The notes beneath the pieces are model-generated. The model was given only the letters and a program-made list of their open reading frames with translations, made no database searches and was not told the origin of the DNA. A stretch of DNA of 56,343 bases from Methylovirgula sp. (lineage in GTDB: Bacteria; Pseudomonadota; Alphaproteobacteria; Rhizobiales; Beijerinckiaceae). The position numbers and the translations under genes are program-made. The stretch covers positions 1 through 56,343 of the forward strand of contig JAYVYB010000144.1 in assembly GCA_043784625.1 (NCBI GenBank), read 5' to 3'. Positions 33,673-51,210 of the stretch are shown one piece after another. The first letter of the stretch is position 1. Each line of letters starts with the position of its first letter.

Positions 33673-33676
33673 GCCT

Positions 33677-36093: not shown

Positions 36094-36123
36094 ACCCGGC
36101 AGACGCGATTGCCTGCCGGGTTT
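36092..36123. terminator. bidirectional rho-independent terminator between rpiR-type gene and ALDH gene
   Basis: AAACCCGGCAG-(10 nt)-CTGCCGGGTTT: a 9-bp GC-rich stem flanked by an A-run and a T-run, lying between two convergent stop codons. Confidence 0.55.
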
Positions 36124-36139
36124 GAGGATTGGTTACCGC

Positions 36140-38533
36140 TCATTCGCCATAGGGCACCCAGATGGTTTTGATTTGCGTGGCGTGGCGCAAGAAATTGATG
36201 CCCTGCCCTTCTACATTCGATTGCCAGTTCAATGCGGCCCCCGGCACAGCCCAAACAGGCTTGAGGTTTCCGGCAGAACTGCGCTCTGCCGCGGCAACGC
36301 CCGCATGCGGACCGGCAAACCACAGCGCCGCCACCTCATCGTGATCAGCCAGCGTTTTGGTCAGCTCATCGCGCTCTCCGGTGACAATATTGACCACACC
36401 GCCCGGCACATCTGACGTGTCCAAAATCTGATAGAAATCCGTCGCCAGCAACGGACACGCTGTGGAGGGCACCACGACAACACGGTTGCCCATGGCGATG
36501 GCTGGCATAACCAAGGACACAAACGCCAACAATGGCGCTTCATCCGGGCAGACAATACCGAGCACGCCAAAGGCTTCATTCAAAGCAACGGTGAGATGGC
36601 GCGCCTTGGTGGCGTGAACCCGACCGTCATATTTATCGGCATAACCGGCATAGAAGAACATGCGCTGAACCGATTTTTCAACTTCCGCAGCAGCTTCGGC
36701 CTCCTTATGCCCCAAAGCCACCAGCCGCGCAGCGAACTCATGAGCCCGCGCGGCGAAGTTTTCCGCCATATAATACAACACCTGCGCCCGGTTATGGCCC
36801 GAAGCACCGCTCCAGGCCGACGCCTTCGCCGCCGCCTCAACCGCGTTGCGGATGTCTTTGCGGCTGCCAAGCCCCGCCAAGCCGACAAGCTGATTGTCTT
36901 TGCCGTGCACAGCGTAGGAATATCCTGAATCTGGCCGCGCCTGTTTGCCGCCCACATAGAGCTTGGCGGTGCGGTCAATATGCGGCTCACCCATCGGAGC
37001 GGCGCGCACAACCGGGGTCGCCACAAGAACATTGGCCTTGGCGGGATGTTCGGCATGGGCCTTTAAATGCGCCGGAACCAGATATTCGAGCAGCCCTTCG
37101 CGCCCGCCCTCGCGGCCAAAGCCGCTTTCCTTGTAGCCGCCGAAGGCCGCTCCGGCATCAAACAGATTGGTCGAGTTAATCCAGATGACACCGGCTTTCA
37201 GCTTCGCCGCTGTTTCCAACGCGCGGTTGATATTTTCCGACCAGATGGTTGCCGCCAAGCCATATCGGGTATGGTTGGCAAGTTGAACCGCCTCGTCCGG
37301 CGTGCGAAAGCTCATCATCACCGCGACCGGGCCGAAGATTTCAACTTCGCAGACCGTGGAGGCTGGTTCGACGTCTATGAAAATCGACGGCGGGAAGAAA
37401 CTCCCCTTTGCGGGCAAAGCGCCCTCGCTCTGCCACAAAGTGCCGCCCTCGGCGATGCCCTTTTGCACCAGCTCGCGGATGCGCTCAAGCTGAACCGGCG
37501 CAACAATCGCGCCCATATCAACAGATTTGTCGAGCGGGTCGCCTACGCGCAAAGTCTTCATCCGGCGGCGCAGTTTGGCCAAAAACGCGTCACGGATGCC
37601 CTCTTGAACCAGCAACCGCGATCCGGCGCAACACACCTGTCCTTGATTGAACCAGATGGCATCGACGACGCCTTCCACAGCCGCATCAAGATCGGCATCC
37701 TCAAACACGATAAACGGTGACTTGCCGCCCAGCTCCAACGACAGCTTTTTTCCAGAACCCGCCGTGGCCTTGCGAATAATCCGGCCAACATCAGTGGAGC
37801 CGGTGAAAGCAATTTTGTTGACATCGGCGTGTTCGACCAGCGCCGCTCCGGCAGCGCCATCACCGCACACAATATTGACCACGCCCGGCGGCAGGCCGAT
37901 TTCGTTGCAAATCTCAGCGAAAGCCAGCGCCGTCAGCGGCGTGAATTCCGCCGGTTTGAGCACGATGGTGTTGCCAGCGGCCAAGGCGGGCGCGATTTTC
38001 CATGCCAGCATCAGCAGCGGGAAATTCCACGGGATGATTTGCCCGCATACGCCCAACGGCGCGTGATCGGGAAATTCGCTGTCGAGCAATTCCGCCCATC
38101 CGGCGTGATGGTAAAAGTGCCGCGCCACCAGTGGAATATCAATGTCGCGGGTTTCACGGATTGGCTTGCCATTGTCGAGGGATTCAAGCACCGACAGAAA
38201 TCGCTCGCGCTTTTGCACCTGCCGCGCCAAGGCATAGAGATATTTGGCGCGCACATGCCCGGGACTTTTCGACCAAGCCGGAAACGCCGCCCGCGCCGCC
38301 TTAACGGCCGCATCAATATCTTTGGCGGTGCCTTCCGGCACTTTGGCGAGCAACACGTCACGCGCCGGATTGATGACGTCGAAGGTCTTGCCGCCGGAGG
38401 AAGGTACAAAGGCTCCGCCAATATAATGGCGAAAACCGTCTTTGTGTTGGTCAATCCAGGCCGTGACATGGGTTTCCGCTTCTGGCGCTGGTCCGTAGTC
38501 CATGGTGTTCAAAATCTCTTTTACGGTGGGCAC
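36140..38533 (-). CDS. aldehyde dehydrogenase family protein with an extra C-terminal partial ALDH module
   Basis: 797 aa. The first ~490 aa are a complete ALDH (ELGGKSP general-base Glu, FNQGQVCCAGSR catalytic Cys). The last ~300 aa repeat only the N-terminal cofactor-binding part (GVLGIVCPDEAPL...MGNRVVVVPS...GGVVNIVTG). Confidence 0.85.
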   Translation of the reverse strand: MPTVKEILNTMDYGPAPEAETHVTAWIDQHKDGFRHYIGGAFVPSSGGKTFDVINPARDVLLAKVPEGTAKDIDAAVKAARAAFPAWSKSPGHVRAKYLYALARQVQKRERFLSVLESLDNGKPIRETRDIDIPLVARHFYHHAGWAELLDSEFPDHAPLGVCGQIIPWNFPLLMLAWKIAPALAAGNTIVLKPAEFTPLTALAFAEICNEIGLPPGVVNIVCGDGAAGAALVEHADVNKIAFTGSTDVGRIIRKATAGSGKKLSLELGGKSPFIVFEDADLDAAVEGVVDAIWFNQGQVCCAGSRLLVQEGIRDAFLAKLRRRMKTLRVGDPLDKSVDMGAIVAPVQLERIRELVQKGIAEGGTLWQSEGALPAKGSFFPPSIFIDVEPASTVCEVEIFGPVAVMMSFRTPDEAVQLANHTRYGLAATIWSENINRALETAAKLKAGVIWINSTNLFDAGAAFGGYKESGFGREGGREGLLEYLVPAHLKAHAEHPAKANVLVATPVVRAAPMGEPHIDRTAKLYVGGKQARPDSGYSYAVHGKDNQLVGLAGLGSRKDIRNAVEAAAKASAWSGASGHNRAQVLYYMAENFAARAHEFAARLVALGHKEAEAAAEVEKSVQRMFFYAGYADKYDGRVHATKARHLTVALNEAFGVLGIVCPDEAPLLAFVSLVMPAIAMGNRVVVVPSTACPLLATDFYQILDTSDVPGGVVNIVTGERDELTKTLADHDEVAALWFAGPHAGVAAAERSSAGNLKPVWAVPGAALNWQSNVEGQGINFLRHATQIKTIWVPYGE

Positions 38534-38544
38534 AGGTGTATTCC

Positions 38545-39627
38545 TCAGGCAAGAGCGTGGTGAGAGGTCGCCGAATAGCGCCCCGTGACGTAATGTTCGA
38601 GCTGCCGCTCAATATCCGAAAGCATGGTGCTGGCACCGATGCGGAACAAATCCGGCTGCATCCAGCGCACACCGAGCTCCTCTTTCATCAATATCAGCCA
38701 GTTCAGCGCATCCTTGGCGGTGCGCAGCCCGCCCGCCGGCTTAAAGCCGATCATTTCGCCGGTGAGATCGCCATAGTCGCGCAACGCCCGCAGCATGATC
38801 AAACTGACCGGCAGCGTGGCATTTACGTCTTCTTTGCCGGTGGAGGTCTTGATGAAATCCGCTCCGGCCATCATCGCCACCATGCTGGCCTTATAGACAT
38901 TGCGCAGGGTTTTCAGGTCGCCTGTTGCCAGAATTGCCTTCATATGAGCTTCGCCGCAGGCTTCGCGCATAGCGCAAATTTCGTCATAAAGCGCGCTCCA
39001 TTCCTGGCACAAAACCTGGGCGCGGTTGATAACAATATCAATTTCCCCTGCACCCATATCCACCGCATAGCTAATTTCCGCCAGCCGTTGCGGCAGAGGG
39101 GTGAGCCCGGTGGGGAAGCCTGTTGCCACCGAGGCCACCGGAATGCCCGAGCCATGCAGCGCCTTCACCGCAGGGCCGACCATGGTTGGATAAACACAAA
39201 CCGCTCCAACTGTGGGCGGATTATCAGAAAGACCAAGCGCGGCGACAATATCGTCCCGCAGGGGCCGCCGCGCTTTGGCCGCCAACCGGTGCACCCGCCC
39301 CGCCGTGTCGTCGCCAGCCAGCGTGGTCAAATCAATGCACTGCATGGCTTTGACCAGCCACGCCGCCTGATATTCTTTTTTGACGGTCCGCCGCGTAGTC
39401 AGTGTGGCAGCGCGCGTCTCCGTTCCGGTAAGATTGATCTGGATGGTTTCAAACCATTCGTGGTAGAGCGGGGTTCCTTTGTTGCGCGGGAAAACGGCGC
39501 CGTGCGGCTTGGCAATGATGCTCAAAGCCGAGGAGGCGGTAACCTCCGGCGTGCTTGTTGCAGTTGCAGGGGTTTCGGGCAGGGTTTTAGACATGCTCTT
39601 GGCCTTGGGTTTGTCCGGTTTAATCAT
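38545..39627 (-). CDS. deoC: deoxyribose-phosphate aldolase, long metazoan-DERA-like form
   Basis: RRTVKKEYQAAWLVKAMQCIDLTTLAGDDT and DFIKTSTGK (Schiff-base Lys), plus GFKPAGGLRT. Start ambiguous: ATG 39627 (8-nt overlap with the sorC-type gene) or ATG 39594. The longest ORF (start 39831) is rejected. Confidence 0.85.
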   Translation of the reverse strand: MIKPDKPKAKSMSKTLPETPATATSTPEVTASSALSIIAKPHGAVFPRNKGTPLYHEWFETIQINLTGTETRAATLTTRRTVKKEYQAAWLVKAMQCIDLTTLAGDDTAGRVHRLAAKARRPLRDDIVAALGLSDNPPTVGAVCVYPTMVGPAVKALHGSGIPVASVATGFPTGLTPLPQRLAEISYAVDMGAGEIDIVINRAQVLCQEWSALYDEICAMREACGEAHMKAILATGDLKTLRNVYKASMVAMMAGADFIKTSTGKEDVNATLPVSLIMLRALRDYGDLTGEMIGFKPAGGLRTAKDALNWLILMKEELGVRWMQPDLFRIGASTMLSDIERQLEHYVTGRYSATSHHALA

Positions 39628-40621
39628 GATGTGCTTCGTCCGATAAAAGAAAGAGGGCTGTCTGCTCATCGGTGACGAGCACGTTAATGTAGCCCGCCCG
39701 CAAACAGGCGAGCGTGATTTTATGTTTGGCTTGGCCCGCCGCCACACCAATTGAAAGCTCCCGCGCCCTGCATTCGTGCAGCGGCAGACCGATGGTACGG
39801 GCATTGAGATTTTCATCAACAATTTTGCCATTGGCGTCGATGAAACGGCTGAGAATATCGCCCACCGCGCCTTTGAGCCGCAATTCCGCAGCTTCCGCCT
39901 CGGTTAGAAATCCGGACTGCACCAAAACCGAATCCGGCCCCACAGCGCCCAGACCAAAGCAAATCACCGATGCGCGCCGCCCCAAGGACAGCACCCGTGC
40001 GATTGTCGGGTCCTGCTCCAAGGCAACGCAGGTTGCCGCATGGCCCAGAATAGCCGGAACCGGCAACAGAGTGGCGGTGCCATCTGCCGATTGGGCGAAG
40101 CGTTCTGCCACATTGTTGGTGCGGTTTGATGACCAGCGAATGTTTGTTGCGCCGTTGAGCAGCACAACTTCACCGCCTTCGTTCCAGAATGGCGACAAGT
40201 GCTTGGCCACGGCGCTCATGGTTCTACCCCAGGAAACGCCCAAAAGCTTGATTTTGCCCAATCCGGCCAACAGCCGGGCTGCCGCCTGCCCCACGCTGTC
40301 CAGCAACAAAGCCGGATCATCATCCCCGGCGGATGAAACAATCACCGCGTCTTTAAGGTTATAGCGGCGCTGCAACCGGCTTTCCAGATCCGGGCGGCGC
40401 GGTGACAACGGCACAATTTCAATGCGCACAAGCCCGGAAGCGCGCGCCTCGGTCAGCAACCGGCTGGCCTGCCAGCGTGTTAATCCAAGCTCTTTGGACA
40501 GCTCGCCCATGGTCATATCAAGCTCGTAATAGCGCTTGGCCACCTGAATCATCAGCAGCTCGCGTTGCTCCGCTGAAAGCTCGCGAAACTGCACCTCGCG
40601 GTCAAACGGTTCAACCGACAT
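39620..40621 (-). CDS. SorC/DeoR(Bacillus)-family sugar-binding transcriptional regulator
   Basis: N-terminal HTH (MTMGELSKELGLTRWQASRLLTEARASGLVRI) plus a SorC-type sugar-phosphate-binding domain. Overlaps both neighbours inside the operon. Confidence 0.8.
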   Translation of the reverse strand: MSVEPFDREVQFRELSAEQRELLMIQVAKRYYELDMTMGELSKELGLTRWQASRLLTEARASGLVRIEIVPLSPRRPDLESRLQRRYNLKDAVIVSSAGDDDPALLLDSVGQAAARLLAGLGKIKLLGVSWGRTMSAVAKHLSPFWNEGGEVVLLNGATNIRWSSNRTNNVAERFAQSADGTATLLPVPAILGHAATCVALEQDPTIARVLSLGRRASVICFGLGAVGPDSVLVQSGFLTEAEAAELRLKGAVGDILSRFIDANGKIVDENLNARTIGLPLHECRARELSIGVAAGQAKHKITLACLRAGYINVLVTDEQTALFLLSDEAHHD

Positions 40622-42137
40622 GGGACTTGCCCTCCAGTTGCCGCGCCGCCAATTTGTGCGAAATGGGCGTGAGCGCCGCGGTCAAATCCTGATAGTCGCG
40701 CAAAAGCTCCAGATATTTCGCGTGGGCTGCCATATTCGGCTCAATGGTTATCACCGGTTGCGCCACGGCTTTGGCCGCCTCAAACAAATCTTTCACCAGT
40801 CCGGCACCTGCCGCTGCACAGGCTACCGTTCCGATGATTGTCAGATTGGCGTTCTTCGGCAGTTGCAGCGGAATGCCGATAGCATCCACGGTGGCGCGCA
40901 GCCACAAACGGTTTTTGACCTGCCCGCCCGCACTCACAATCCGGTTACAAACCACGCCCAATTCTCCCATGCGCTGCAACACATGCGCAGTGGCCAAAGC
41001 TACACCCTCGACAGCGGAACGGTAAAGCGCCGCGCGGCTGTGGCCCAAGGTTAGCCCGACAATGGCACCGCGCAGCAGCGGGTCGCGGTAAGGCGTGCGA
41101 TTGCCCATAAAATAATCGAGCGTGAGCAGGCCCGTCCCGCCCACTTCAAATGTCTCCGCCTCGCTCAAAAGTGCTTCAAAGGCGGCGCTATCCATATCGA
41201 ACATCGCCCCCGAGAACCACGACAGCACCGAACCAGCCGAAACCTGCCCGGCTTCCACCAACCAATGATCGTCGATAAGCGCATGCGGATAAGGCCCCCA
41301 GAAGCCGGAAACTTCTTTCTGTTCGGGCAAATGAAACAGATGAACCACCGATGTGCCGCCGATCATCAGCAGCTCTCCGGGCGACAGGGTACCTGCGCCC
41401 ACCATGCCGATATGCGCATCGATGCCGCCCTGCGCCACCACGGGGCAATTGCTCAAACCCAGATGTTGCATGGCATTAATGCTTAAATGGGCGATAGGCG
41501 CGCCCACGGCATAAATTTGCGACGGCAATTTGGAGCGCAAATCCGGCACACCGAATTCGCTGAACAATCCGTCATGGAATTTCTTCTCGACGGAATCGTA
41601 GTTCCACTTGCAGGTGGCGTTCATGCGGGACCCGACCCACAGGCCGGTGAGCTTGAAATTCACATAATCGAGGCACTCGCAGATTATTTCGGCCTGATTG
41701 TAAACCTCAGGCTCGTGTGCGGCCAGCCACATCGCCTTTGGCACCAGCCATTCGGAGGCATCGCTGCCACCGGGATAGGCCATCACCGTATGTTTCGAAC
41801 GCGCGGTGCGCCCGGCTTCTTCCACGGCGCGGCAATCCATCCACAACAGGGCTGGCCGTAGCGCCCGGCCATCGCGGCGGCAGGCCACCACGGTGGAGGC
41901 GGTGGTCGCAGCACAAAGACCGGCAATTTCCGGCGACCCGACATCCCGCATCAGTCCGCGCGTGGCGTCTCCAAGCGCTGCCCACCAATCTTCCGGAGAT
42001 TGCTCAGCCCAGCCCTGACGCGGATAGTGAGTTGGATATGACGCTTCGCGCTCGCCGATGACGACGCCGCGCTCAAGGTCAAAAACCCCAACGCGAACCC
42101 CGCCGGTGCCAAAATCAAGGCCAAGAAGCAACGCCAT
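40611..42137 (-). CDS. FGGY-family carbohydrate kinase (ribulokinase-like)
   Basis: LGLDFGTGGVRVGVFD, GWAEQSPEDWW, GGTSVVH. 508 aa. Confidence 0.8.
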   Translation of the reverse strand: MALLLGLDFGTGGVRVGVFDLERGVVIGEREASYPTHYPRQGWAEQSPEDWWAALGDATRGLMRDVGSPEIAGLCAATTASTVVACRRDGRALRPALLWMDCRAVEEAGRTARSKHTVMAYPGGSDASEWLVPKAMWLAAHEPEVYNQAEIICECLDYVNFKLTGLWVGSRMNATCKWNYDSVEKKFHDGLFSEFGVPDLRSKLPSQIYAVGAPIAHLSINAMQHLGLSNCPVVAQGGIDAHIGMVGAGTLSPGELLMIGGTSVVHLFHLPEQKEVSGFWGPYPHALIDDHWLVEAGQVSAGSVLSWFSGAMFDMDSAAFEALLSEAETFEVGGTGLLTLDYFMGNRTPYRDPLLRGAIVGLTLGHSRAALYRSAVEGVALATAHVLQRMGELGVVCNRIVSAGGQVKNRLWLRATVDAIGIPLQLPKNANLTIIGTVACAAAGAGLVKDLFEAAKAVAQPVITIEPNMAAHAKYLELLRDYQDLTAALTPISHKLAARQLEGKSHVG

Positions 42138-42157
42138 TATTTTATTCCGATCAGCAT

Positions 42158-43180: not shown

Positions 43181-43244
43181 TTTCTGTCCTCTCAAAATTT
43201 TGGCCTTGCCCGCATGCGCGGTGCAAACCTTGATGAAATTCAAT

Positions 43245-44387
43245 CTAGCTTTGGGCCGCCAACCGGCTTGTGAAAGCGTCCAGCGCCAAAATGGCGTCGC
43301 GAACAATCACAATGGAGAGCGGAACGGCCACTTTCCGTGTGGGCGAGCCGGGCAACAAAGCGGCAGCAGCCACCCGGCCGATATCGTCATGCGTGGCGGC
43401 CTTCAGATTAAGATCGGCAAGTGTGGTCGGCAGGCCAACACTTCGGCAAAACCGTGCCATGTCTTCAATTTCAGCCAACGGTCGCCCCTCCAGCATCAAC
43501 AGACACAACACGCCGAATGCGACTTTCTCGCCATGAAAAAATCCGTGGGTTTCATCGAGCACGGTCAGGCCGTCATGGATGCCATGCGCGGCCGAGACGC
43601 CGCAATTTTCAAAACCGAGCCCGCTCAGCAGCGTATTGGCTTCGATGATGTTTTCGACGGCTTGGGTCAGCGCGCCTTTTTCGACAGCCAATTTTGCCGC
43701 GAGCGCATCCCGCATCAAAACGTCATGACAGGTTTTGGCGATGGCAATGCCGGCGGCAGGCGGAGCCATGTTCGGCTGGATCAAATTGTTCGAGCTCGAA
43801 TCAAGATTGGAGCGCGCCTCAAACCATGTTGAGAGTGCGTCACCGATGCCGGCCACCAAAAAGCGCACCGGCGCGGCGGCAATCACCGCGCTATCGACAA
43901 TGACAATATCCGGATTTCGCGGGAGAAAAATGGCTTCCTGATACACACCATGAGCATTATAGCGCACCGCGATGGCGCTGCAGGGCGCATCTGTCGAGGC
44001 GATTGTTGGCACAATCACAATCCGCGCACGGGTAGCTACGGCTGCCAACTTCGCCGTATCCGCAGTTTTGCCGCCGCCAATGCCAACAATAACGTCCGCC
44101 TTGAAGGCGCGCGCGAGTGCCGTAATGCGGGCTATTTCCTCGTCACAACATTCACCGCCAAACGCCTCGATTTTTGCGTTGAGGCCGCTGGCCAGCAACA
44201 GCCGGGCGATGTTTTCACCCATTTTGTCAAAAACAAACCGGTCAACCAACACGAAAATGGTGCCGCCAAGCGCTTTGACATGGTCGCCCAGCCGCTCGAT
44301 TTCTCCGGCGCATTGAATGTATTTTCCCGGTCCGCCATATGAGCGGCCCTGAGAGCGGCGTCCGCCTTGAGCAAGTTCTGTCATCAC
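43245..44387 (-). CDS. gldA: glycerol dehydrogenase-like iron-containing alcohol dehydrogenase
   Basis: GPGKYIQ, FGGECC, GIGGGKTADTAK, PTIASTDAPCSA and AGIGDALSTWFEA are collinear with E. coli GldA. Confidence 0.75.
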   Translation of the reverse strand: MMTELAQGGRRSQGRSYGGPGKYIQCAGEIERLGDHVKALGGTIFVLVDRFVFDKMGENIARLLLASGLNAKIEAFGGECCDEEIARITALARAFKADVIVGIGGGKTADTAKLAAVATRARIVIVPTIASTDAPCSAIAVRYNAHGVYQEAIFLPRNPDIVIVDSAVIAAAPVRFLVAGIGDALSTWFEARSNLDSSSNNLIQPNMAPPAAGIAIAKTCHDVLMRDALAAKLAVEKGALTQAVENIIEANTLLSGLGFENCGVSAAHGIHDGLTVLDETHGFFHGEKVAFGVLCLLMLEGRPLAEIEDMARFCRSVGLPTTLADLNLKAATHDDIGRVAAAALLPGSPTRKVAVPLSIVIVRDAILALDAFTSRLAAQS

Positions 44388-44393
44388 AACTCC

Positions 44394-45185
44394 TTAAAAT
44401 CCGCCAACCACATAGCCGCCATCAACCGGCAGACTGACGGCCGTGATGAAGGCAGCAGCGGGTGAAGCTAAAAACAACGCGGTGCCAACCAAATCTTCCA
44501 CAGACCCCCAACGCTTCAGCGCCGAGCGGTTGGCTATTTTCGCGGCGGTGTCCGGCACGGACCACAGATCTTGCGTCATTGCGGTTTTGTGATAGCCCGG
44601 CGCGATGGCGTTAACCCGAACCCCGTCACGGCCAAGCTTATGGGCAAGCGCCCGCGTCAGGCCCAGAATTCCGGTTTTGCTGGCCCCGTAGGCGGGAACA
44701 TTTTCATCGGCCAGATAGCTCAACATCGAAGAAATATTGAGGATCACACCTCTGGATTTTACCAGATGTTCCCGGCCAGCCATGGCCAGACGCATGGCGC
44801 TGTTGAGGTTGATATCCATGACCTCAAGAAACGTGTCCTCGTCATATTCAATATGGGCGCGGGCGGTGCCTCGCGCATTTATGAGCACATCCAGCGCCGG
44901 AAGCGCCTTGATAAACGCCGGAACGGCAACACGGTCGCGCACGTCAAGACAGGCAAATTTGATTTTTGAAAGGCCGGGGTTGTCGCGCAAGGCTGCCAAC
45001 TTGGCCTCGGAGGAGCCTGTGGCGGTAACACTCGCCCCCAGCGCCGAGAATCCCTGAGCCATCGCCAGCCCGATGCCGCTGGACCCGCCCGACACCAGAA
45101 CATGTTTGCCCTCGAACAGGTCGGGGCGAAATGACGATACAACATCTTGCATATTTGGCGCTGACATATCCGGCTCCATTGTCAT
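44394..45185 (-). CDS. SDR-family oxidoreductase
   Basis: VSGGSSGIGLAM cofactor motif and YGASK catalytic Y-x3-K. ATGA overlap with the upstream kinase gene. Confidence 0.85.
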   Translation of the reverse strand: MTMEPDMSAPNMQDVVSSFRPDLFEGKHVLVSGGSSGIGLAMAQGFSALGASVTATGSSEAKLAALRDNPGLSKIKFACLDVRDRVAVPAFIKALPALDVLINARGTARAHIEYDEDTFLEVMDINLNSAMRLAMAGREHLVKSRGVILNISSMLSYLADENVPAYGASKTGILGLTRALAHKLGRDGVRVNAIAPGYHKTAMTQDLWSVPDTAAKIANRSALKRWGSVEDLVGTALFLASPAAAFITAVSLPVDGGYVVGGF

Positions 45186-46702
45186 GCTGGCGGCGCAGAT
45201 AGCGCCAACGCATCGAGATCATTGTAAAGCGCTTGGCTTTGCGCATGGATTTTGTTGACAATAGGCTGCATTTTTTGATAGTGCGCCGTCCAGACCGGAT
45301 CGGGCTGAACCTCATCGCCGTAGCGCACATAGGACTGAACAGCCTGTGCGATGGTCGAAAATCGTCCTGTCGCCGTCGCGGCCATCGCGGCGCAGCCGAT
45401 GACGCCGCATTCCGGCTCGACCGGAACCACAATCGGCGTGCCGTAAATGCTGGCTTTGATGCGCAGCCACAGCTCGGTTTTTGCCCCGCCGCCGGAGGCA
45501 ATCACCCTTTGCAGTTTTTGCCCTGCCGCCTTTTCCATAATGCGCAGATGCCGCGCTGCTGCAAATGCCACGCCCTCCATAACGGCGCGGTGCAGATGAT
45601 TCAAACCATGCGCGGCCCCAAGCCCGAAAAATTGCGCCCGCGCATTGCGATGAAGCCCCAAACGTTCGCCGGATAAAAACGGCAGGAAGAACAACCCGTT
45701 TGAGCCTGCCGGAGCCAGCGCCGCTCTTGCCGCCATTTGATCATAGCTTAAACTGTTCTCGTGAAACGCCCGCCGCGCCCAGCGCATGGCATCGCCGCCG
45801 GTTTCCAACAAAACAAATGGGCCCCAATGCCCCTCAATGGTGGCGACATTGCAAATTTCGGGATCAATCAGGGGCGCATCAGCAATCAGCGTTAAAATAC
45901 ATGAGGTGCCTGTGACATCGGAAGCCAGCCCGGGGCGACATGCACCGGACCCCAGCAGCGCTACCGGATAATCCGCCCCGCCTACCAGAACGGGAGTGCC
46001 TTCAAGCAGGCCGGTTGCCTGCGCGGCGGTGGCGCTGACTTGGCCCAAAATCTCAAGCGGATTGCGGATTGGCGGCAGCTTATTGGCGTCCAGCCCGAGC
46101 CGCCCGATCATTTCCACAGACCAAGCCCGCGTTTGGGCGTCCATCAAAAAGCTGCAAGACGCATCGCCGGTGTCCATGGCTTTTTCGCCGGTCAGGCGCA
46201 GGTTGATATAGTCCTTCGGCATCAACACAGAGGCGGTGGCTCTATAGGCCGCAGGATCATTATCGCGCAGCCACGCAAGCTTGAAGCCCGGCCACGCCGG
46301 TGTGGGCGGATTGGCGGTCAGCGCCAGATAGGTTTCGGGCGCGTTGCCCCGTTCAAAATCCGCAACCAGATCGATCGTGCGCTTGTCATTCCACAAGGGG
46401 GCGGTGTGCCGGGTAAGCTCCCCCGCCGCGTCCACCAAAACGGTGCCATGCATTTGGCCGCACACGCAGATGGCCGATATCCGGCTGCGCGCATCATGAA
46501 CGGCAGCCAGCACCATGCGGATGCTTTCCACCACGCCCAGCCACCAATCCTCCGGACGTTGCTCCGCCCAGCCGAAAGCCGGAACAATTTGCTCATGCTC
46601 CCGCGCGGCGATGTGCACAATCACGCCGCTGCTGTCGACAAGCGCGGCACGCACAGAGCCGGTGCCAACATCGACAGAAAGGGTGAGGTCTCGCATCATC
46701 AC
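45182..46702 (-). CDS. FGGY-family carbohydrate kinase (xylulokinase-like)
   Basis: VDVGTGSVRAALVD, FGWAEQRPEDWW, CGQMHG. 506 aa. Confidence 0.8.
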   Translation of the reverse strand: MMMRDLTLSVDVGTGSVRAALVDSSGVIVHIAAREHEQIVPAFGWAEQRPEDWWLGVVESIRMVLAAVHDARSRISAICVCGQMHGTVLVDAAGELTRHTAPLWNDKRTIDLVADFERGNAPETYLALTANPPTPAWPGFKLAWLRDNDPAAYRATASVLMPKDYINLRLTGEKAMDTGDASCSFLMDAQTRAWSVEMIGRLGLDANKLPPIRNPLEILGQVSATAAQATGLLEGTPVLVGGADYPVALLGSGACRPGLASDVTGTSCILTLIADAPLIDPEICNVATIEGHWGPFVLLETGGDAMRWARRAFHENSLSYDQMAARAALAPAGSNGLFFLPFLSGERLGLHRNARAQFFGLGAAHGLNHLHRAVMEGVAFAAARHLRIMEKAAGQKLQRVIASGGGAKTELWLRIKASIYGTPIVVPVEPECGVIGCAAMAATATGRFSTIAQAVQSYVRYGDEVQPDPVWTAHYQKMQPIVNKIHAQSQALYNDLDALALSAPPA

Positions 46703-46714
46703 GCCGCCTGAGCC

Positions 46715-47737
46715 TTAGCGCTTCAACGAGCCGGTGCTATATTGCAGCAACATCGCCACCACGATGATGAGCCCCATATAGACCTGCTGATGATAGCCCG
46801 GAACCCCGGCAAGGTTCATGATATTGGCAATGATGCCCATGACCAAAGCGCCAAGCATGGTGTTGATAACGCCGCCACGCCCGCCCATCAGGCTGGCACC
46901 GCCAATAACCACAGCCGCAATGACGTTTAGTTCGGCACCGACACCGACCTGAGCCGAACCAACCCCCGTACGCGCCGAGGAAATGATACCGGCCACAGCG
47001 GCAAGAATTCCGGAAATGACATATACAACAATGACATAACGCGGCACAGCAATGCCTGAAAGCCGGACAGCCTCTTCATTAGAGCCGATAGCCGTAACAA
47101 TACGCCCGAACTTGGTGAATTTGAGCACCACGCCGCCGACGACAAAAATCGCAAACATCAGAATTACCGGCTGCGGAATTCCAAGCCAGAAGCCGGAGCC
47201 GAAGTTCGACAAGCTCTCACCGGCATCTCCCAGCGAAATCGGCCTGCCCGCAGACACGATAAGCGAAAGCCCACGCGCGATTGCCATCATCGCCAACGAC
47301 ATCACAAACGACGGCAGGCGCAGATAGGCCACAAATCCGCCGGTGATCAGCCCGCATCCAGCCCCCGCCAACAACGACAATATGATGGCAGTGGTAACGC
47401 TATATCCGGAGATTGTGATGAAATATGCCACCAACACGCCGCCCAAAGCTGCGATGGACCCGACCGACAAATCAATACCGCGCGTCAGAATGACAAAAAG
47501 CATTCCAACCGCCATGATGCCCGCACCGGAGGCCACCTGTCGTAACACGTTGAGAATATTGGTTTGGGTGAGGAAGCTTTCAGACCACAGGCTGGCCGTG
47601 ACAACGAGCGCAAGAAAAATGCCCAATGTGCCGAAGCGCTGCACATATTCGATGATTGTGGCGCGGCGGACGCGAGTGTTTTGCGTATCGCGTTGATTTT
47701 GGGTGATTGCTGTTTCGGATTTTTCTGAAAGGCTCAT
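46715..47737 (-). CDS. sugar ABC transporter permease (RbsC type)
   Basis: 340 aa, polytopic, with the conserved GIDLSVGS loop. Confidence 0.85.
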   Translation of the reverse strand: MSLSEKSETAITQNQRDTQNTRVRRATIIEYVQRFGTLGIFLALVVTASLWSESFLTQTNILNVLRQVASGAGIMAVGMLFVILTRGIDLSVGSIAALGGVLVAYFITISGYSVTTAIILSLLAGAGCGLITGGFVAYLRLPSFVMSLAMMAIARGLSLIVSAGRPISLGDAGESLSNFGSGFWLGIPQPVILMFAIFVVGGVVLKFTKFGRIVTAIGSNEEAVRLSGIAVPRYVIVVYVISGILAAVAGIISSARTGVGSAQVGVGAELNVIAAVVIGGASLMGGRGGVINTMLGALVMGIIANIMNLAGVPGYHQQVYMGLIIVVAMLLQYSTGSLKR

Positions 47738-47738
47738 G

Positions 47739-49295
47739 TCATTTCACCAATTGATTGTTTTCAACGCGCCGCGTCATCGCCAGCGACAATAGATTTTCTT
47801 CCGAGTAATTTTCGGGCTGGAGTTCTCCGCGCAGCGCGCCCTCTCCCATCACCAAAATGCGGTCACACAGGCCGAACAGTTCCTGATGCTCGGACGAGAT
47901 CACCAGCACAGCCTTGCCTTGTTCAGCCAGCTTGTTGACGAGCGCATAAATCTCGGTTTTGGCGCCAACATCAACACCGCGCGTCGGCTCATCCAGAATG
48001 ATCACGTCGCCATCGGCGTGAAACCATTTGGCCAAAACCACCTTTTGCTGGTTGCCTCCCGATAGGCTCGAAACCGGCGCATCGATGCTTGCGGCTTTCA
48101 ACCGCAGATTTTTGCCAAGATCGGTCACGGCTGATTTTTCATGTGTGCCGCGTAAAAAGCCGAAAAAATTCACGACGGCGGAAAGGCGCGCCATTGTCAC
48201 ATTGATGCGAATGGGCTGATCAAGAATGACCCCCTGCGTCTTACGGTCTTCCGGGATAAGGCCAATTCCCGCCTGAACCGCATCTTTCGGCGAATGAAAC
48301 TTCACCTTTTTGCCGTTGAGGTGTATCTCGCCGCTCTCCAACTTATCCGCGCCGAAAACCAGACGCGCAACCTCGGTGCGCCCCGAGCCGACCAAGCCGC
48401 CAAGACCGACGATCTCACCGGTGCGCACCTGAAAACTCACGTCGCGCACCATGCGCCCGGCCATCAAATTGCGCACCTCAAGCTTGGGCGCGCCGATGGC
48501 CCTGTTGCCTTTTGGCGGAAACATGGCGGCAAGCGGACGCCCGACCATCATGCGGATAACTTCATTGATATTGGTGTCTTTGGTGGCGACAGTGCCGACA
48601 ATCTGGCCGTCTTTCATCACTGTCATGCGGTCGGCAATGCTAAACACCTCTTCCAACCGGTGCGAGATGTAAACAATGCCGACACCGCGGGCCTTCAAAT
48701 CCAGAATGATGCGGTGTAGCCGCCCGGCATCCTGCGATGAAAGCACGGCGGTGGGCTCGTCAAATACGATGATTTTAACATCGCGGGTCAAGGCCTTGGC
48801 AATTTCAACCACCTGTTGATGCGCCACGGCAAGATTGCCGACAGTCTGGTCCGGATCAATCTCAAAACCAAGGCGGCGCATGAGTTCGGCGGCGCGTTGC
48901 TTGAGGCCGCGATAGGAAATCAGCGGCGGCAGCTCGCCCAAAAAGATGTTTTCTGCAACGGACAAATCCGGTGCGAGGGCAAATTCCTGATGGATAACTG
49001 CGATCCCCAGCGCCCGCGCATCACTTGGCGCACCCAAAGAGACCTGCTTGCCGGCAATTTCAATTCTGCCGCTGCTCGGATGCATTTCGCCGCCCAAAAC
49101 CCGCATCAAGGTCGATTTTCCGGCACCGTTCTCGCCCAGCAAAGCGTGAATTTCACCGCTGCGCACTGCGAAATCAACACCCTTCAAGGCGTGGATACCA
49201 CCAAAAGACTTTGTGATGGCGACTAGGTTTACAAGATCGGTCATTGGGCTGGCCAGCGCTTGAGACTGTGACGGCGAGCTGGAGCCCGCCGCCAC
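47739..49295 (-). CDS. sugar ABC transporter ATP-binding protein (duplicated cassette, RbsA type)
   Basis: GENGAGKST, LSGGNQQKVVLAKW, VIILDEPTRGVD. Confidence 0.9.
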   Translation of the reverse strand: MAAGSSSPSQSQALASPMTDLVNLVAITKSFGGIHALKGVDFAVRSGEIHALLGENGAGKSTLMRVLGGEMHPSSGRIEIAGKQVSLGAPSDARALGIAVIHQEFALAPDLSVAENIFLGELPPLISYRGLKQRAAELMRRLGFEIDPDQTVGNLAVAHQQVVEIAKALTRDVKIIVFDEPTAVLSSQDAGRLHRIILDLKARGVGIVYISHRLEEVFSIADRMTVMKDGQIVGTVATKDTNINEVIRMMVGRPLAAMFPPKGNRAIGAPKLEVRNLMAGRMVRDVSFQVRTGEIVGLGGLVGSGRTEVARLVFGADKLESGEIHLNGKKVKFHSPKDAVQAGIGLIPEDRKTQGVILDQPIRINVTMARLSAVVNFFGFLRGTHEKSAVTDLGKNLRLKAASIDAPVSSLSGGNQQKVVLAKWFHADGDVIILDEPTRGVDVGAKTEIYALVNKLAEQGKAVLVISSEHQELFGLCDRILVMGEGALRGELQPENYSEENLLSLAMTRRVENNQLVK

Positions 49296-49331
49296 TTCAT
49301 TTCTGATACTTTCCGGGGGAGAAAAGAGTTC

Positions 49332-50303
49332 TCAGAAAACAGCGTCCGCACGATAGAACTTGTCAACATTTTCCTTGGTGATGACAGCCGGAGTTGTCAG
49401 GAACAATTTAGGAAAATCCGCGCCCAAAGTGCCGCCCAGGGCTTTCAGTCCAATATCGATGGCGGTGCGGGCAACCAGATCCGGATCGTTCAAGCCGGTA
49501 GCGCCGTATTTGCCTTCCTTGATGGCGGCAAGAGCTTCTTTCTGGCCGTCAGCGGCAGCAAGAACCAACACGTCGGTCTTGTTGGCAGCTTTCAGAGCCT
49601 TCATCGCGCCCAAAACCATCGAGTCGTTTTCGCCGAGAACCACATTGACGTCGCCGTGCGCAGTGAGCAAATCTTCAGTGGCTTTCAAGCCGCCTTCATC
49701 AGCCCAGCCGCCCCAGCCCTGACCCAAAACCTGGTAGCTGGACTTGCCTTCATTGGTCAACTGGCCTTCAACAATGCCCTTGAACACGCCAAGGCGGCGG
49801 TCACGGCCCACTTCATTGCCTTTGTCGCCGGAAAGCAGAATGATTTTCATCGGCTTACCCTGCATTTTCTTAGCCAGCCACTGGCCGACCAAATAGCCGT
49901 TCTGGTCGTTTGAAGACCGAACCTGCGTAACAACGTTGGCCTTGGTGTCGATGGATGAATCCATGACCACGACCTTGACGCCTTTGGCAGTTGCAGCATT
50001 GGCAGCCGGAACCAGCCCGGCAGGATCGCGCGGATTGAGGATCAACAGTTTAACGCCGTTGGTCACCATGTCTTCGACGTCGGCAATCTGCTTGCCCATG
50101 TCGTTCTGGCCATCGGAGGTAACCACAGTGCAACCGGCTTTTTTGGCCTGATCAGCAGCGGCAGCAACCTGAGCCGCGAAATAAGGCGCGCCAAGCGTGT
50201 ACATGGCAATGCCAACTTTACAATCAGCTGCTTGGGCGGAACCCAAAGCGCTTGTCATCATCAGCGCGGCCGCAAGAATTGAGCCTTTAATCATCACCTT
50301 CAT
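49332..50303 (-). CDS. sugar ABC transporter substrate-binding protein (RbsB type)
   Basis: Signal peptide MKVMIKGSILAAALMMTSALGSAQA. GGGAGG lies 7 nt before ATG 50303; the track start at 50369 is a TTG further upstream. Confidence 0.85.
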   Translation of the reverse strand: MKVMIKGSILAAALMMTSALGSAQAADCKVGIAMYTLGAPYFAAQVAAAADQAKKAGCTVVTSDGQNDMGKQIADVEDMVTNGVKLLILNPRDPAGLVPAANAATAKGVKVVVMDSSIDTKANVVTQVRSSNDQNGYLVGQWLAKKMQGKPMKIILLSGDKGNEVGRDRRLGVFKGIVEGQLTNEGKSSYQVLGQGWGGWADEGGLKATEDLLTAHGDVNVVLGENDSMVLGAMKALKAANKTDVLVLAAADGQKEALAAIKEGKYGATGLNDPDLVARTAIDIGLKALGGTLGADFPKLFLTTPAVITKENVDKFYRADAVF

Positions 50304-50350
50304 AACCTGACCTCCCGGTACTGTTTGTTCGAGCATTGTTAGGCAGCTCG

Positions 50351-50371: not shown

Positions 50372-50386
50372 TTGAAATGGCGTCAA

Positions 50387-50419: not shown

Positions 50420-50443
50420 CATTAGTGAAGCATAAACGCCGCA

Positions 50444-51200: not shown

Positions 51201-51210
51201 GGCGGGTGAC

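Follow-up and report, generated by a model that had tools for sequence, protein, structure and literature searches.

A two-module catabolic locus in Methylovirgula sp. with a possible route for 2-deoxy five-carbon sugars or sugar alcohols into central metabolism

The 56,343-nt stretch of Methylovirgula sp. DNA analysed here (contig JAYVYB010000144.1; hereafter the window) carries 11 co-directional genes on the minus strand at 36140-50303. Which compound does this gene set break down, and does it do so through a single pathway? The initial annotation proposed one phosphorylative route for one or two related polyols or deoxy-sugars that ends in a DeoC-type cleavage, and it could not match the combination to any characterised pathway. 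A literature search likewise found neither a paper on this cluster nor a matching characterised pathway.

The ORF listing agreed with the 11 genes, and Pfam and NCBIfam confirmed the family of each. The coordinates gave junction gaps of 36, 1, 12, 6, 64, 20 and 11 nt and overlaps of 4, 11 and 8 nt, and the description of a tightly packed catabolic operon with gaps of at most 64 nt was borne out. Two start codons carry a caveat: in L087, a metagenome contig 90-98% identical to the window, the ATPase is 17 codons shorter, giving an SBP-ATPase gap of 87 nt, and the SDR is 6 codons shorter, giving a 14-nt gap instead of the ATGA overlap. The true ATPase start in the window may also lie about 17 codons downstream; the overall picture is unchanged by either alternative. 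About 30 alphaproteobacterial species share this gene order, so the arrangement is more than chance. However, the unit extends beyond 36140-50303. The composite catabolic locus spans 35134-53629 and comprises 15 genes, two of which encode regulators (SorC internally and RpiR at one end), and its 11 minus-strand genes form one operon of two conserved modules, A and B. The features are as follows:

35134-36093, plus strand: RpiR/HexR-like regulator (HTH_6 and SIS; HexR model 276 bits, cut-off 296)
36140-38533, minus strand: two-domain aldehyde dehydrogenase (ALDH), 797 aa, module B (PF00171, 667 bits, residues 42-485)
38545-39627, minus strand: deoxyribose-phosphate aldolase (DERA, DeoC), long form, module B (TIGR00126, 146.5 bits, above the cut-off of 117.3)
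39620-40621, minus strand: SorC-family regulator, module B (PF04198, 215 bits)
40611-42137, minus strand: FGGY2, module B kinase of an orphan FGGY subfamily (FGGY_N and FGGY_C)
42158-43180, minus strand: GatD-like Zn-dependent MDR dehydrogenase (Zn-ADH), module B (ADH_N and ADH_zinc_N)
43245-44387, minus strand: Fe-ADH of the glycerol-dehydrogenase (GldA) family, module A accessory (NF006941 (PRK09423), 457 bits, above the cut-off of 336)
44394-45185, minus strand: short-chain dehydrogenase (SDR), module A (adh_short_C2, 166 bits)
45182-46702, minus strand: FGGY1, xylulokinase-like sugar kinase, module A (FGGY_N and FGGY_C)
46715-47737, minus strand: ABC permease, module A (BPD_transp_2, 127 bits)
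47739-49295, minus strand: ABC ATPase with two ABC domains, module A (ORF listing and orthologues)
49332-50303, minus strand: CUT2/RbsB-like periplasmic solute-binding protein (SBP), module A (Pfam Peripla_BP_4, 164 bits)
50304-50564, no strand assigned: putative divergent promoter and operator region (conserved motifs)
50565-51200, plus strand: divergent cupin-type sugar-phosphate isomerase, module A (PF06560 GPI, 220 bits)
51211-52194, plus strand: shikimate-dehydrogenase-family oxidoreductase, module A (weak shikimate dehydrogenase model, 35 bits)
52208-53629, plus strand: GlcD-like FAD-linked oxidase, module A (FAD_binding_4 and FAD-oxidase_C; GlcD model 263 bits, cut-off 568)

The cluster fuses two modules that are separable in evolution, because module A (SBP, ATPase, permease, FGGY1, SDR and GldA, with the divergent cupin, shikimate-dehydrogenase-family and GlcD-like genes and the RpiR regulator) occurs without module B in Verminephrobacter eiseniae and Paraburkholderia, and module B (Zn-ADH, FGGY2, SorC, DeoC and ALDH) occurs elsewhere with a different ABC transporter. 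The single-pathway reading thus stood only in part: its DeoC-ALDH end was linked to the GatD-like dehydrogenase, FGGY2 and SorC, but the 11 genes do not make up one pathway. Judged from spacing only, modules A and B would be co-transcribed in the window, probably from the SBP promoter. The GldA-to-Zn-ADH gap is 25-65 nt in loci with both modules and is not conserved, so it gives no sign of an internal promoter. A Shine-Dalgarno sequence precedes both the SBP ATG at 50303 (GGGAGG) and the Zn-ADH ATG at 43180 (GAGAGGA). Upstream of the SBP gene, a promoter-like site was found on the minus strand at 50386-50357. TGTA-N7-TACA-like elements at 50354-50368 (overlapping the -10) and 50509-50524 and the motif TCACTAATGTGT at 50417-50428 are conserved across genera, and a perfect 15-bp inverted repeat at 50444-50478 was seen in the window and L087 only. 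The SBP promoter region has conserved HexR-type palindromes and a TCAC...GTG palindrome, and a palindrome of the latter kind precedes the Zn-ADH gene of module B in L018 and L063.

Four conserved partner genes of module A, the cupin, shikimate-dehydrogenase-family, GlcD-like and RpiR genes, lie just beyond 36140-50303 and were absent from the initial annotation; the module A partner genes are kept around orthologues of the window SBP. The top PDB match of this SBP was 4RY9 (373 bits, ~62% identity), which we take to be a D-talitol complex, and in alignment the SBP has S and A in place of the RbsB ribose-contact residues R90 and N13. Two ABC_tran domains were found in the ATPase orthologues of L087 and L082, and the permease is RbsC- and AraH-like, both models scoring below their cut-offs. 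FGGY1 scored 351.6 bits against TIGR01312 XylB (cut-off 380). FGGY1 accompanies the SBP of module A, and in V. eiseniae and Paraburkholderia, which show this pairing too, the module also contains the SDR. The SDR reached the cut-off of no model in the NCBIfam profile search and is a candidate polyol 2-dehydrogenase; the GldA-family gene is variably present across related loci. The cupin gene lies upstream of the SBP in nearly all SBP-bearing loci, those of V. eiseniae and Paraburkholderia included, and is syntenic with the gene at 51211-52194, whose product had no match in the Pfam search and whose homologues are labelled 'shikimate dehydrogenase family protein' by NCBI. Additionally, the GlcD-like gene adjoins module A in L084, L085 and L087, and RpiR orthologues (55-69% identity) stand beside module A in L005, L018, L020, L062, L084 and L085, suggesting that the RpiR/HexR-like protein is probably the module A regulator. 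In this module, the RbsB-type ABC system would import one or more linear polyols, and the SDR, the GldA-family enzyme, FGGY1 and the cupin isomerase would turn them into a central sugar phosphate, probably under control of the flanking repressor.

Module B is widespread. Its Zn-ADH-FGGY2-SorC trio was found in essentially all 80 species-level loci, ranging from Hyphomicrobiales, Rhodobacterales, Acetobacterales and Geminicoccus to Mycolicibacterium (M. smegmatis MSMEG_3091-3095), Microlunatus and Agrococcus, and the FGGY2 gene was invariably next to the Zn-ADH gene across the compared loci. Among the 59 species-level loci with at least 7 kb on both sides, 44 had a DERA gene within 10 kb of the core (29 long form, 15 short form), whereas chance proximity is estimated at less than 1% per locus, since a genome has one or two DERA genes. 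The association spans two phyla, two DERA subfamilies and at least five architectures: DERA is fused after SorC in the window, Labrys and Aureimonas, follows a different ABC permease in an 8-gene operon of Brucella gallinifaecis, follows the permease as a short form in Mycolicibacterium (TIGR00126, 217 bits), and precedes the module A SBP as a short form in Geminicoccus. In two further cases, Lichenicola and Pararhizobium, complete canonical deoxyribose operons (deoK/deoC) with a ribokinase-family PfkB kinase directly adjoin module B.

The window DeoC is a true DERA, because it scores above the equivalog cut-off and its catalytic Asp and two Lys (D197, K260 and K296, corresponding to E. coli D102, K167 and K201) are invariant. 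These residues sit within the FIKTSTGK and GFKPAGG motifs, and the long form has a conserved N-terminal extension of ~45 aa. This assignment also bears on an lsr-like system for uptake and destruction of AI-2, with an Rbs-type importer, an LsrK-like FGGY, an LsrR-like SorC and an LsrF-like DeoC/LacD enzyme. The same four protein families do occur in lsr operons, and LsrR ranks second among the structural relatives of the SorC regulator (126 bits), but LsrK (123 bits, cut-off 528), LsrR (131, cut-off 486) and LsrB (32, cut-off 384) all scored far too low, DeoC passes the TIGR00126 cut-off and is not LsrF, no LsrG was found, and three to five dehydrogenases plus the ALDH would have no role in AI-2 processing. 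The family scores effectively refute this explanation, which we regard as extremely improbable.

The two-domain ALDH was invariably paired with long-form DeoC across the compared loci. It contains the ELGGKSP and QVCCAGSR motifs. When its C-terminal 306 residues (492-797) were aligned as a separate sequence, residues 35-250 matched residues 37-245 of the N-terminal domain with 32% identity, and the catalytic half was missing from this piece. The protein thus combines a catalytic N-terminal domain with a truncated, non-catalytic ALDH-like domain of ~300 aa.

That the operon ends with the cleavage of deoxyribose-5-P and the oxidation of acetaldehyde is almost certain, with strong support from sequence and gene context, because DERA lies near the core in 44 of 59 loci with at least five architectures. 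The same association makes a 2-deoxy sugar or polyol phosphate route, as initially suggested, the most economical reading. Module B thus appears to be a widespread uncharacterised unit that channels a 2-deoxy sugar or sugar alcohol of five carbons into central metabolism. Its own product would be 2-deoxy-D-ribose 5-phosphate. Cleavage of this compound by DERA would give glyceraldehyde 3-phosphate plus acetaldehyde, with the ALDH then oxidising the acetaldehyde to acetate. No PfkB kinase was found in the window operon, so FGGY2 is the only candidate maker of deoxyribose-5-P there. DERA requires an aldehyde at C1 and a methylene at C2. Given only a single NAD(P)-dependent dehydrogenase and a single kinase, the precursors are limited to the alditol or aldose of 2-deoxyribose; the 6-deoxy-hexitols once proposed cannot yield the DERA substrate. 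The imported compound would accordingly be a 2-deoxy five-carbon polyol or sugar. In the simplest scheme, FGGY2 would phosphorylate C5 of 2-deoxy-D-ribitol, after which the Zn-ADH, which resembles polyol-phosphate dehydrogenases, would oxidise C1; alternatively, oxidation to 2-deoxyribose would precede phosphorylation. In either order FGGY2 would replace the canonical PfkB deoxyribokinase, and the window module B would have lost its own transporter and use that of module A. As a whole, this two-module explanation with a 2-deoxy C5 substrate is tentative, and we put it slightly short of an even chance.

Several observations count against it. GatD-type MDR enzymes normally oxidise the secondary alcohol beside a terminal CH2OH, and to oxidise a 2-deoxy-alditol phosphate at C1 would be an atypical reaction within this subfamily. 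To our knowledge, no FGGY kinase phosphorylates deoxyribose or deoxyribitol, and we know of no report of 2-deoxyribitol as an abundant natural compound. In 15 of the 59 loci, mostly of the Rhizobium type with both modules, Zn-ADH and FGGY2 occur with no DERA within 10 kb, so the pair may work alone, for example on a pentitol. In addition, the alternative SBP of module B retains most RbsB ribose-contact residues in alignment, which suggests that transporters of this type carry a cyclic pentose and not a linear alditol.

These last points favour two ordinary pentitol/hexitol modules with a co-regulated deoxyribose branch. From ribitol, xylitol or D-arabitol the Zn-ADH would make a pentulose, which FGGY2 would convert to a pentose-phosphate-pathway intermediate, the two enzymes alone making a complete pentitol pathway. 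DERA and ALDH would handle the parallel substrate 2-deoxy-D-ribose, also phosphorylated by FGGY2 because its D-erythro C3-C5 portion is common to D-ribulose. Ribulokinase (262 bits, cut-off 428) and XylB (250 bits, cut-off 380) were indeed the top models for FGGY2, whose top PDB match was 3GG4/3L0Q (197 bits), and lichen-associated Acetobacteraceae and Hyphomicrobiales are enriched among carriers of the cluster; ribitol, arabitol and erythritol are abundant in lichens. However, an unprecedented bifunctional kinase would be needed, and neither the retention of Zn-ADH in minimal eight-gene operons ending in DeoC-ALDH nor the complete deoK/deoC operons that lie beside module B and bring their own transporter and kinase would be explained. 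The structural-genomics entry 4YV7, an M. smegmatis-type SBP, presumably contains no common polyol or pentose as ligand, which also argues against this explanation. We consider it unlikely, though not negligible.

The remaining module B proteins bear on the initial analogies. The Zn-ADH has the catalytic C-H-E ligands and four structural-zinc Cys; its top PDB match was E. coli GatD (4A2C, 209 bits) and its best model was GatD, but at 235 bits, far under the cut-off of 550, it is GatD-like rather than GatD, and oxidation of a polyol phosphate is an analogy only. The comparison with EryA/EryD fared no better, since it explains nothing about DeoC. A variant erythritol/tetritol pathway with DeoC and ALDH as unrelated passengers would have FGGY2 phosphorylate erythritol, the GatD-like enzyme replace EryB to give erythrulose 4-phosphate, and the cupin yield erythrose 4-phosphate. 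FGGY-SorC pairing in ery operons, the product that GatD-type regiochemistry would give on erythritol 4-phosphate, the cupin isomerase in the locus, a weak match of the SDR to the GolD/DthD family and carriage by lichen-associated bacteria are consistent with it. Yet this pathway leaves the DERA association (44 of 59 loci across two subfamilies and five architectures) without explanation, the cupin is a module A gene rather than part of the Zn-ADH/FGGY2 module, and no homologue of EryB (GlpD-like) or EryC, as initially reported, nor of TpiA2 or RpiB, was seen among the annotated window ORFs. Furthermore, EltD and LerK, which act on tetritols in M. smegmatis, differ from the proteins encoded here; LerK is of the DAK type. 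This pathway is improbable.

For the SorC regulator, the nearest models were B. subtilis DeoR (240 bits, cut-off 420) and LsrR, and the top PDB match was DeoR 8R7Y (154 bits). Alignment places Asn at the position of the deoxyribose-5-P-binding lysine of DeoR, which we take to be Lys141; this would count against the 2-deoxy C5 reading. B. subtilis DeoR binds deoxyribose-5-P covalently (PMC11229326).

Among known systems, the canonical deoxyribose kinase/aldolase pathway of Salmonella and Burkholderia (deoK-deoC and acetaldehyde oxidation; PMC6365646) shares with the window ABC uptake, a sugar-phosphate-sensing repressor, and DERA cleavage to glyceraldehyde-3-P and acetaldehyde followed by an aldehyde dehydrogenase. 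Unlike it, the window operon lacks both a PfkB/ribokinase-family deoxyribokinase and an RbsD- or DUF4432-type mutarotase. It carries in their place a GatD-like Zn-dehydrogenase and an FGGY kinase, for which the known pathway has no role, and regulation falls to a SorC-type protein instead of one of the enterobacterial DeoR/DeoQ type. The ery operon of Brucella/Rhizobium (eryA-D, eryH/I) resembles the window in its FGGY kinase, SorC-type repressor, ABC polyol uptake (in rhizobia) and kinase-then-dehydrogenase logic, whereas the window lacks the Ery-type homologues named above, has an MDR dehydrogenase in place of the GlpD-like flavoenzyme, and finishes with DERA and ALDH instead of leading to erythrose-4-P. 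Pentitol operons (Klebsiella rbt/dal) likewise pair a dehydrogenase with an FGGY pentulokinase. Compared with PTS-linked GatD and D-arabitol-phosphate dehydrogenase systems, where E. coli GatD is the closest solved relative of the window MDR enzyme, the window has no PTS and no tagatose-bisphosphate aldolase. We know of no DERA association for any pentitol operon or PTS-linked polyol-phosphate dehydrogenase system.

The M. smegmatis locus MSMEG_3091-3095 (SBP structure PDB 4YV7) encodes orthologues of the Zn-ADH (57% identity, as for the Mycolicibacterium orthologues), FGGY (44%) and SorC (40%), followed in Mycolicibacterium by an ABC system and a short DERA. It differs in its SBP/transporter subfamily, in the short-form DERA and in having no adjacent ALDH and no module A genes. 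A literature search found no published function for it, its sole appearance being as differentially expressed genes in PMC12027616. For the Veis_2079 cluster of V. eiseniae (SBP PDB 4RY9), the same search found no published pathway. That cluster lacks Zn-ADH, FGGY2, SorC, DeoC and ALDH and has an extra HAD phosphatase, but it matches module A of the window in the cupin, shikimate-dehydrogenase-family protein, 62% identical SBP, ATPase, permease, FGGY and SDR, with RpiR and the GlcD-like oxidase nearby.

Eleven co-directional genes of the families named in the initial annotation were found on the minus strand between 36140 and 50303 by ORF listing and Pfam/NCBIfam scans.

Genes of the operon in order of transcription
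Gene 1, minus strand: substrate-binding protein (SBP), RbsB-like
Gene 2, minus strand: two-domain ABC ATPase
Gene 3, minus strand: permease
Gene 4, minus strand: first FGGY kinase (FGGY1), close to xylulokinase (351.6 bits; cut-off 380)
Gene 5, minus strand: SDR
Gene 6, minus strand: GldA-family Fe-ADH (457 bits, above the cut-off of 336)
Gene 7, minus strand: Zn-dependent MDR dehydrogenase (Zn-ADH), best model GatD (235 bits versus a cut-off of 550; PDB 4A2C, 209 bits)
Gene 8, minus strand: second FGGY kinase (FGGY2), orphan subfamily (ribulokinase 262 and XylB 250 bits, both below cut-off; best PDB match 3GG4, 197 bits)
Gene 9, minus strand: SorC-family regulator
Gene 10, minus strand: DeoC
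Gene 11, minus strand: ALDH, 797 aa

The ORF coordinates confirmed the tight junctions described earlier, with gaps of 36, 1, 12, 6, 64, 20 and 11 nt and overlaps of 4, 11 and 8 nt. All genes share one direction, no junction exceeds 64 nt and no conserved internal promoter was seen; by spacing and direction, the 11 genes are predicted to form a single transcription unit. Consensus promoter and terminator scans stayed at background (terminators at or below the shuffled expectation), except for one promoter-like site before the SBP gene, and an Rfam scan of the whole window returned no RNA family. In L087, a metagenome contig 90-98% identical to the window, the ATPase and SDR were called slightly shorter, which would open one gap to 87 nt and remove the ATGA overlap; this is immaterial to the operon picture.

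The DeoC protein is predicted to be a genuine deoxyribose-phosphate aldolase (DERA). It scored 146.5 bits against the DERA equivalog (EC 4.1.2.4, TIGR00126; cut-off 117.3) and carries the motifs FIKTSTGK and GFKPAGG around the catalytic residues. In an alignment with six relatives and what we take to be the E. coli DeoC sequence, D197, K260 and K296 were invariant, corresponding to E. coli D102 (proton-relay Asp), K167 (Schiff-base Lys) and K201 (second Lys). This long-form protein bears a conserved extension of ~45 residues at its N terminus; its exact start is uncertain because conservation is missing over the first ~45 residues of the 360-aa ORF. The short mycobacterial DeoC has 231 aa and scored 217 bits against TIGR00126.

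The ALDH gene adjoins deoC at a distance of 11 nt. Its N-terminal domain is complete, with ELGGKSP and QVCCAGSR motifs and intact catalytic Glu and Cys. The C-terminal ~300 residues (36140-37060) form a second, truncated ALDH-like domain comprising the NAD-binding half only: this part aligns solely with residues 37-245 of the N-terminal domain (the NAD-binding part, 32% identity), and sequence comparison found in it no catalytic half and no catalytic Cys or Glu. It could act in regulation, oligomerisation or substrate channelling with DERA. The two-domain ALDH was invariably paired with the long-form DeoC, also within canonical deoxyribose operons (802 aa in that of locus L089). Because the pair also occurs there, it appears to be a generic unit, working in canonical operons too, that would convert deoxyribose-5-P to glyceraldehyde-3-P and acetate. 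In the window operon, DERA would cleave deoxyribose-5-P to glyceraldehyde-3-P and acetaldehyde, and ALDH would oxidise the acetaldehyde to acetate. These predicted terminal steps are strongly supported, and the DeoC-type cleavage plus ALDH already suggested as the end of the route holds, with the aldolase above its cut-off and the residues and motifs of both enzymes preserved.

The operon had been read as one 11-gene pathway. The window SBP shares 62% identity with that of PDB structure 4RY9, and the 4RY9 sequence used as a query led to a Verminephrobacter eiseniae protein and its locus, which contains a cupin annotated as "GPI", a 319-aa protein, SBP, ATPase, permease, FGGY kinase, HAD phosphatase and SDR, with an RpiR regulator and a GlcD-like oxidase close by. 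No Zn-ADH, FGGY2, SorC or DeoC gene was found in this locus. Paraburkholderia tropica has a similar locus with an additional GldA-family gene. Four partners of this kind flank the window operon and were syntenic in nearly all loci with a window-type SBP.

Genes flanking the operon
35134-36093: RpiR/HexR-like regulator
50565-51200: cupin (PF06560, 220 bits)
51211-52194: shikimate-dehydrogenase-family protein
52208-53629: GlcD-like oxidase

Because these partners flank the operon and the same set stands alone in V. eiseniae, the operon is better described as a fusion of two modules than as one pathway. Module A (SBP through GldA plus the four flanking genes) is predicted to be an independent polyol module, and module B (Zn-ADH through ALDH) a DERA-linked unit. 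The spacer between the GldA and Zn-ADH genes was short (25-65 nt) and not conserved in ~25 loci with both modules, and gave no sign of an internal promoter. Module B of the window lacks a dedicated transporter. Labrys and Geminicoccus have the module A transporter together with module B but neither FGGY1 nor SDR, suggesting that this transporter serves module B there. The operon is a clear example of building by module fusion, in which one of the modules has given up its transporter in favour of its partner's.

Pocket alignment showed that SBP', the alternative SBP of module B, retains RbsB residues D89, R90, R141, N190 and D215. In the window/4RY9-type SBP, R90 is replaced by Ser and N13 by Ala, a hint of a longer, open-chain ligand. 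The M. smegmatis SBP' structure, 4YV7, matched the M. senegalense orthologue at 551 bits. Presumably, 4RY9 was deposited with D-talitol and 4YV7 with glycerol only. The module A substrate may be a polyol resembling D-talitol or ribitol.

A species-level genome scan seeded with the Zn-ADH yielded 179 relatives, and 80 loci were kept. The closest Zn-ADH matches were in Labrys species (80% identity), and the closest metagenome contig was 98% identical; this places the window in an uncultured member of the Hyphomicrobiales. According to tblastn matrices, the invariant core across loci was Zn-ADH-FGGY2-SorC. It was present in Hyphomicrobiales (Labrys, Rhizobium, Aureimonas, Brucella/Ochrobactrum, Shinella, Nitratireductor, Roseiarcus and Lichenihabitans), Rhodobacterales, Geminicoccus and Acetobacterales, many of the latter being lichen MAGs and isolates. 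Additionally, it was found in Actinomycetota (Mycolicibacterium, Microlunatus and Agrococcus) with 57, 44 and 40% identity for Zn-ADH, FGGY2 and SorC, respectively; the M. smegmatis cluster is MSMEG_3091-3095. The cluster was enriched in lichen- and root-associated bacteria, and its substrate may therefore be an ecologically relevant polyol.

Searches with the long and the short mycobacterial DeoC identified a DERA gene in 54 of the 80 loci. Where at least 7 kb was available on both sides of the Zn-ADH gene, DERA was present in 44 of 59 loci (29 long form, 15 short form). Several long-read MAGs (L022, L024, L042 and L061) had DeoC or ALDH frames in two to three fragments, probably assembly indels rather than true pseudogenes, and a fragment match was counted as DeoC-positive. 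We estimate chance co-location at <1% per locus, since a genome has only one or two DERA genes. The other 15 of the 59 loci had no nearby DERA and so favour the main rival explanation, a plain pentitol pair of Zn-ADH and pentulokinase with FGGY2 moonlighting on deoxyribose, which we consider possible but rather unlikely.

Architectures linking DERA to the core
(a) SorC-DeoC-ALDH fused: window, Labrys, Aureimonas endophytica
(b) SBP'-ZnADH-FGGY2-SorC-ATPase'-Perm'-DeoC-ALDH, a minimal 8-gene operon whose ABC system is of another kind: Brucella gallinifaecis, Shinella, Rhizobium subbaraonis and others
(c) like (b), with short DeoC and no ALDH: Mycolicibacterium
(d) short DeoC ahead of the window-type transporter: Geminicoccus
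(e) ZnADH-SorC-DeoC-ALDH: Agrococcus
(f) complete canonical deoxyribose operon directly adjoining; it includes a separate regulator and transporter, a mutarotase-like gene (of type DUF4432 in Lichenicola and RbsD/FucU in Pararhizobium) and a PfkB kinase of the ribokinase family that exceeds the TIGR02152 cut-off: Lichenicola cladoniae, further Acetobacteraceae, Pararhizobium antarcticum, two Aureimonas species

The differences among these architectures argue that DERA has been joined to the Zn-ADH-FGGY2-SorC core repeatedly and under selection. The Agrococcus sp. 1P02AA locus (L078, 8227-20926) has an NCS1-family (cytosine/purine/uracil-type) permease followed by Zn-ADH, SorC, long DeoC and ALDH, and continues with a second Zn-ADH, a different FGGY kinase, an SBP and an ATPase. 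The nucleobase/nucleoside-type permease beside its DERA module hints at a link to nucleoside-derived sugars.

A DERA substrate must carry an aldehyde at C1 and a methylene at C2, and as a putative source of deoxyribose-5-P the window operon has redox enzymes and FGGY kinases only, with no PfkB kinase. With one dehydrogenase and one kinase, only 2-deoxyribitol and 2-deoxyribose could serve as precursors. Where a complete deoK operon that includes an importer adjoins, the compound handled by module B must be a different, though related, one. We put it at slightly below an even chance that module B feeds 2-deoxyribitol or 2-deoxyribose to DERA via Zn-ADH and FGGY2 in either order. In one order, the kinase would act first, followed by the GatD-like polyol-phosphate dehydrogenase at C1; in the other, the dehydrogenase would act first and FGGY2 would be a deoxyribokinase. 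That module B is specifically a hitherto unreported pathway in which an FGGY polyol kinase acts first on a 2-deoxy-alditol (such as 2-deoxy-D-ribitol or something close to it), with a candidate primary-alcohol-oxidising GatD-like polyol-phosphate dehydrogenase then supplying 2-deoxyribose 5-phosphate to DERA, is possible but rather unlikely. If true, a natural deoxy-polyol would be common enough to maintain dedicated high-affinity ABC importers in both Alphaproteobacteria and Actinomycetota.

Among the deoxy-pentitols and 6-deoxy-hexitols suggested in the initial annotation, a 2-deoxy-pentitol is retained as a putative substrate. The 6-deoxy-hexitols and 1- or 5-deoxy-pentitols were rejected on chemistry, as they give methyl-ketose phosphates, which are not DERA substrates; deoxyribonate or its lactone was likewise rejected, as acid reduction would be needed. 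If an FGGY kinase and an MDR dehydrogenase do provide a third entry to DERA, this would explain what the three core genes do, which occur in at least 179 species-level genomes, including M. smegmatis, supply ligands for two orphan structural-genomics SBP structures (4RY9-like and 4YV7-like), and correct the widespread automatic name "galactitol-1-phosphate 5-dehydrogenase". Both this name and "L-iditol 2-dehydrogenase", also given automatically in the cluster, are unsupported.

The divergent region before the SBP gene spans 261 nt and contains the promoter-like site. Two TGTA-N7-TACA-like palindromes in it, of a form typical of HexR/RpiR operators, were conserved across genera. A TCACnnnnGTGx palindrome in the same region was also found upstream of the Zn-ADH gene in loci L018 and L063, where module B starts its own unit, and is a candidate SorC operator. 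A perfect 15-bp inverted repeat at 50444-50478 (TATTGCGCTGCAATA-N5-TATTGCAGCGCAATA) occurred only here and in L087; at this position, a single TTGC-N3-GCAATAT element was conserved across genera, its duplication into a perfect palindrome being confined to these two. The repeat was therefore rejected as a general operator. The RpiR operators of V. eiseniae and Paraburkholderia are AACGTTAGT-type repeats, unlike the alphaproteobacterial motifs, so that no cross-clade RpiR operator could be defined.

B. subtilis DeoR binds its effector deoxyribose-5-P covalently (PMC11229326). The window SorC regulator scored 240 bits against the DeoR equivalog, below the cut-off of 420, although this was still its best model, and DeoR 8R7Y was its best PDB match. 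The DeoR segment VVQLKGG, whose Lys is reportedly the one that binds deoxyribose-5-P (Skerlova et al. 2014), aligns with VVLLNGA in the window regulator. Because this Lys is replaced by Asn, the covalent mechanism appears not to be conserved.

Immediately beside the operon and convergent with its ALDH end lies a known system, a complete Rhizobium-type L-rhamnose locus (24067-35041). It comprises rhaI (TIGR02629, 682 bits), the bifunctional rhamnulose-1-P aldolase/SDR gene rhaD (1167 bits) and genes for a regulator of the DeoR type, the SBP RhaS (452 bits), one ATPase, a pair of permeases, the mutarotase RhaM (33355-33672) and a RhaK-like kinase (FGGY_C_2). The ribokinase-family gene nearest to the operon, 19 kb away at 16556-17566, encodes a PfkB kinase right at the TIGR02152 cut-off (301.2 versus 299.65 bits), of the same family as deoxyribokinase, and adjoins a ModE/modABC molybdate uptake cluster (18071-21514). 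Regions 497-8118 and 8769-14307 contain a surface-polysaccharide cluster and then other genes. The former includes a flippase of MurJ/Wzx type, a protein resembling Wzy/O-antigen ligase, two glycosyltransferases of family GT4 and, at 4760-6943, a 727-aa protein with no Pfam match; an acyl-CoA-dehydrogenase-like gene, DUF1839 (418 bits) and a GH2-like 808-aa protein follow.

To our knowledge, the only established deoxyribose routes are the PfkB kinase/DERA pathway and oxidative pathways. Price et al. (2019 and 2022) likewise describe deoxyribose use via the PfkB route and oxidative routes only. The window operon resembles the canonical deoK/deoC pathway in DERA followed by acetaldehyde oxidation, but none of the 15 genes of the composite locus encodes a PfkB protein, whereas the adjacent operons in L086 and L089 have one. 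The earlier assignment of a GatD-type enzyme stands in that GatD is the best model and best solved relative, but not in score (less than half the cut-off) or context, the window locus having no PTS or class II tagatose-bisphosphate aldolase. As its catalytic and structural zinc ligands are present, the Zn-ADH is considered an MDR polyol-type dehydrogenase.

Erythritol-like and lsr-like readings fail on gene membership. The ery pathway shares only the FGGY and SorC families (EryA and EryD); no DAO/GlpD, xylose-isomerase-like TIM, TIM or RpiB families were found among the annotated ORFs of the window, in line with the reported absence of eryB and eryC. The lsr (AI-2) system was rejected on scores for LsrK (123 versus 528 bits), LsrR (131 versus 486) and LsrB (32 versus 384); moreover, the aldolase is DERA, not LsrF, and LsrG is absent. 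The M. smegmatis tetritol pathway of Huang et al. 2015 (EltD, LerK, LerI and DerI) was also rejected for the mycobacterial homologues: translation of the published lerK gave a DAK-type protein and that of derI1 an RpiB-type one, neither family occurring in the window locus, and eltD encodes a different Zn-ADH. The only published mention of MSMEG_3091-3095 that was found concerns their differential expression (PMC12027616). Literature searches covering 4RY9, the MSMEG locus tags, deoxyribitol, SorC/FGGY/deoxyribose and SBP ligands found no paper on this cluster, so the earlier view that the operon matches no characterised pathway persists. Because it is widespread and can be studied in a tractable model organism and through two orphan SBP structures, the cluster is readily testable. 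Made up of ordinary protein families, it combines two known kinds of system, a polyol operon and a DERA pathway, and its key biochemical step is a proposed one.
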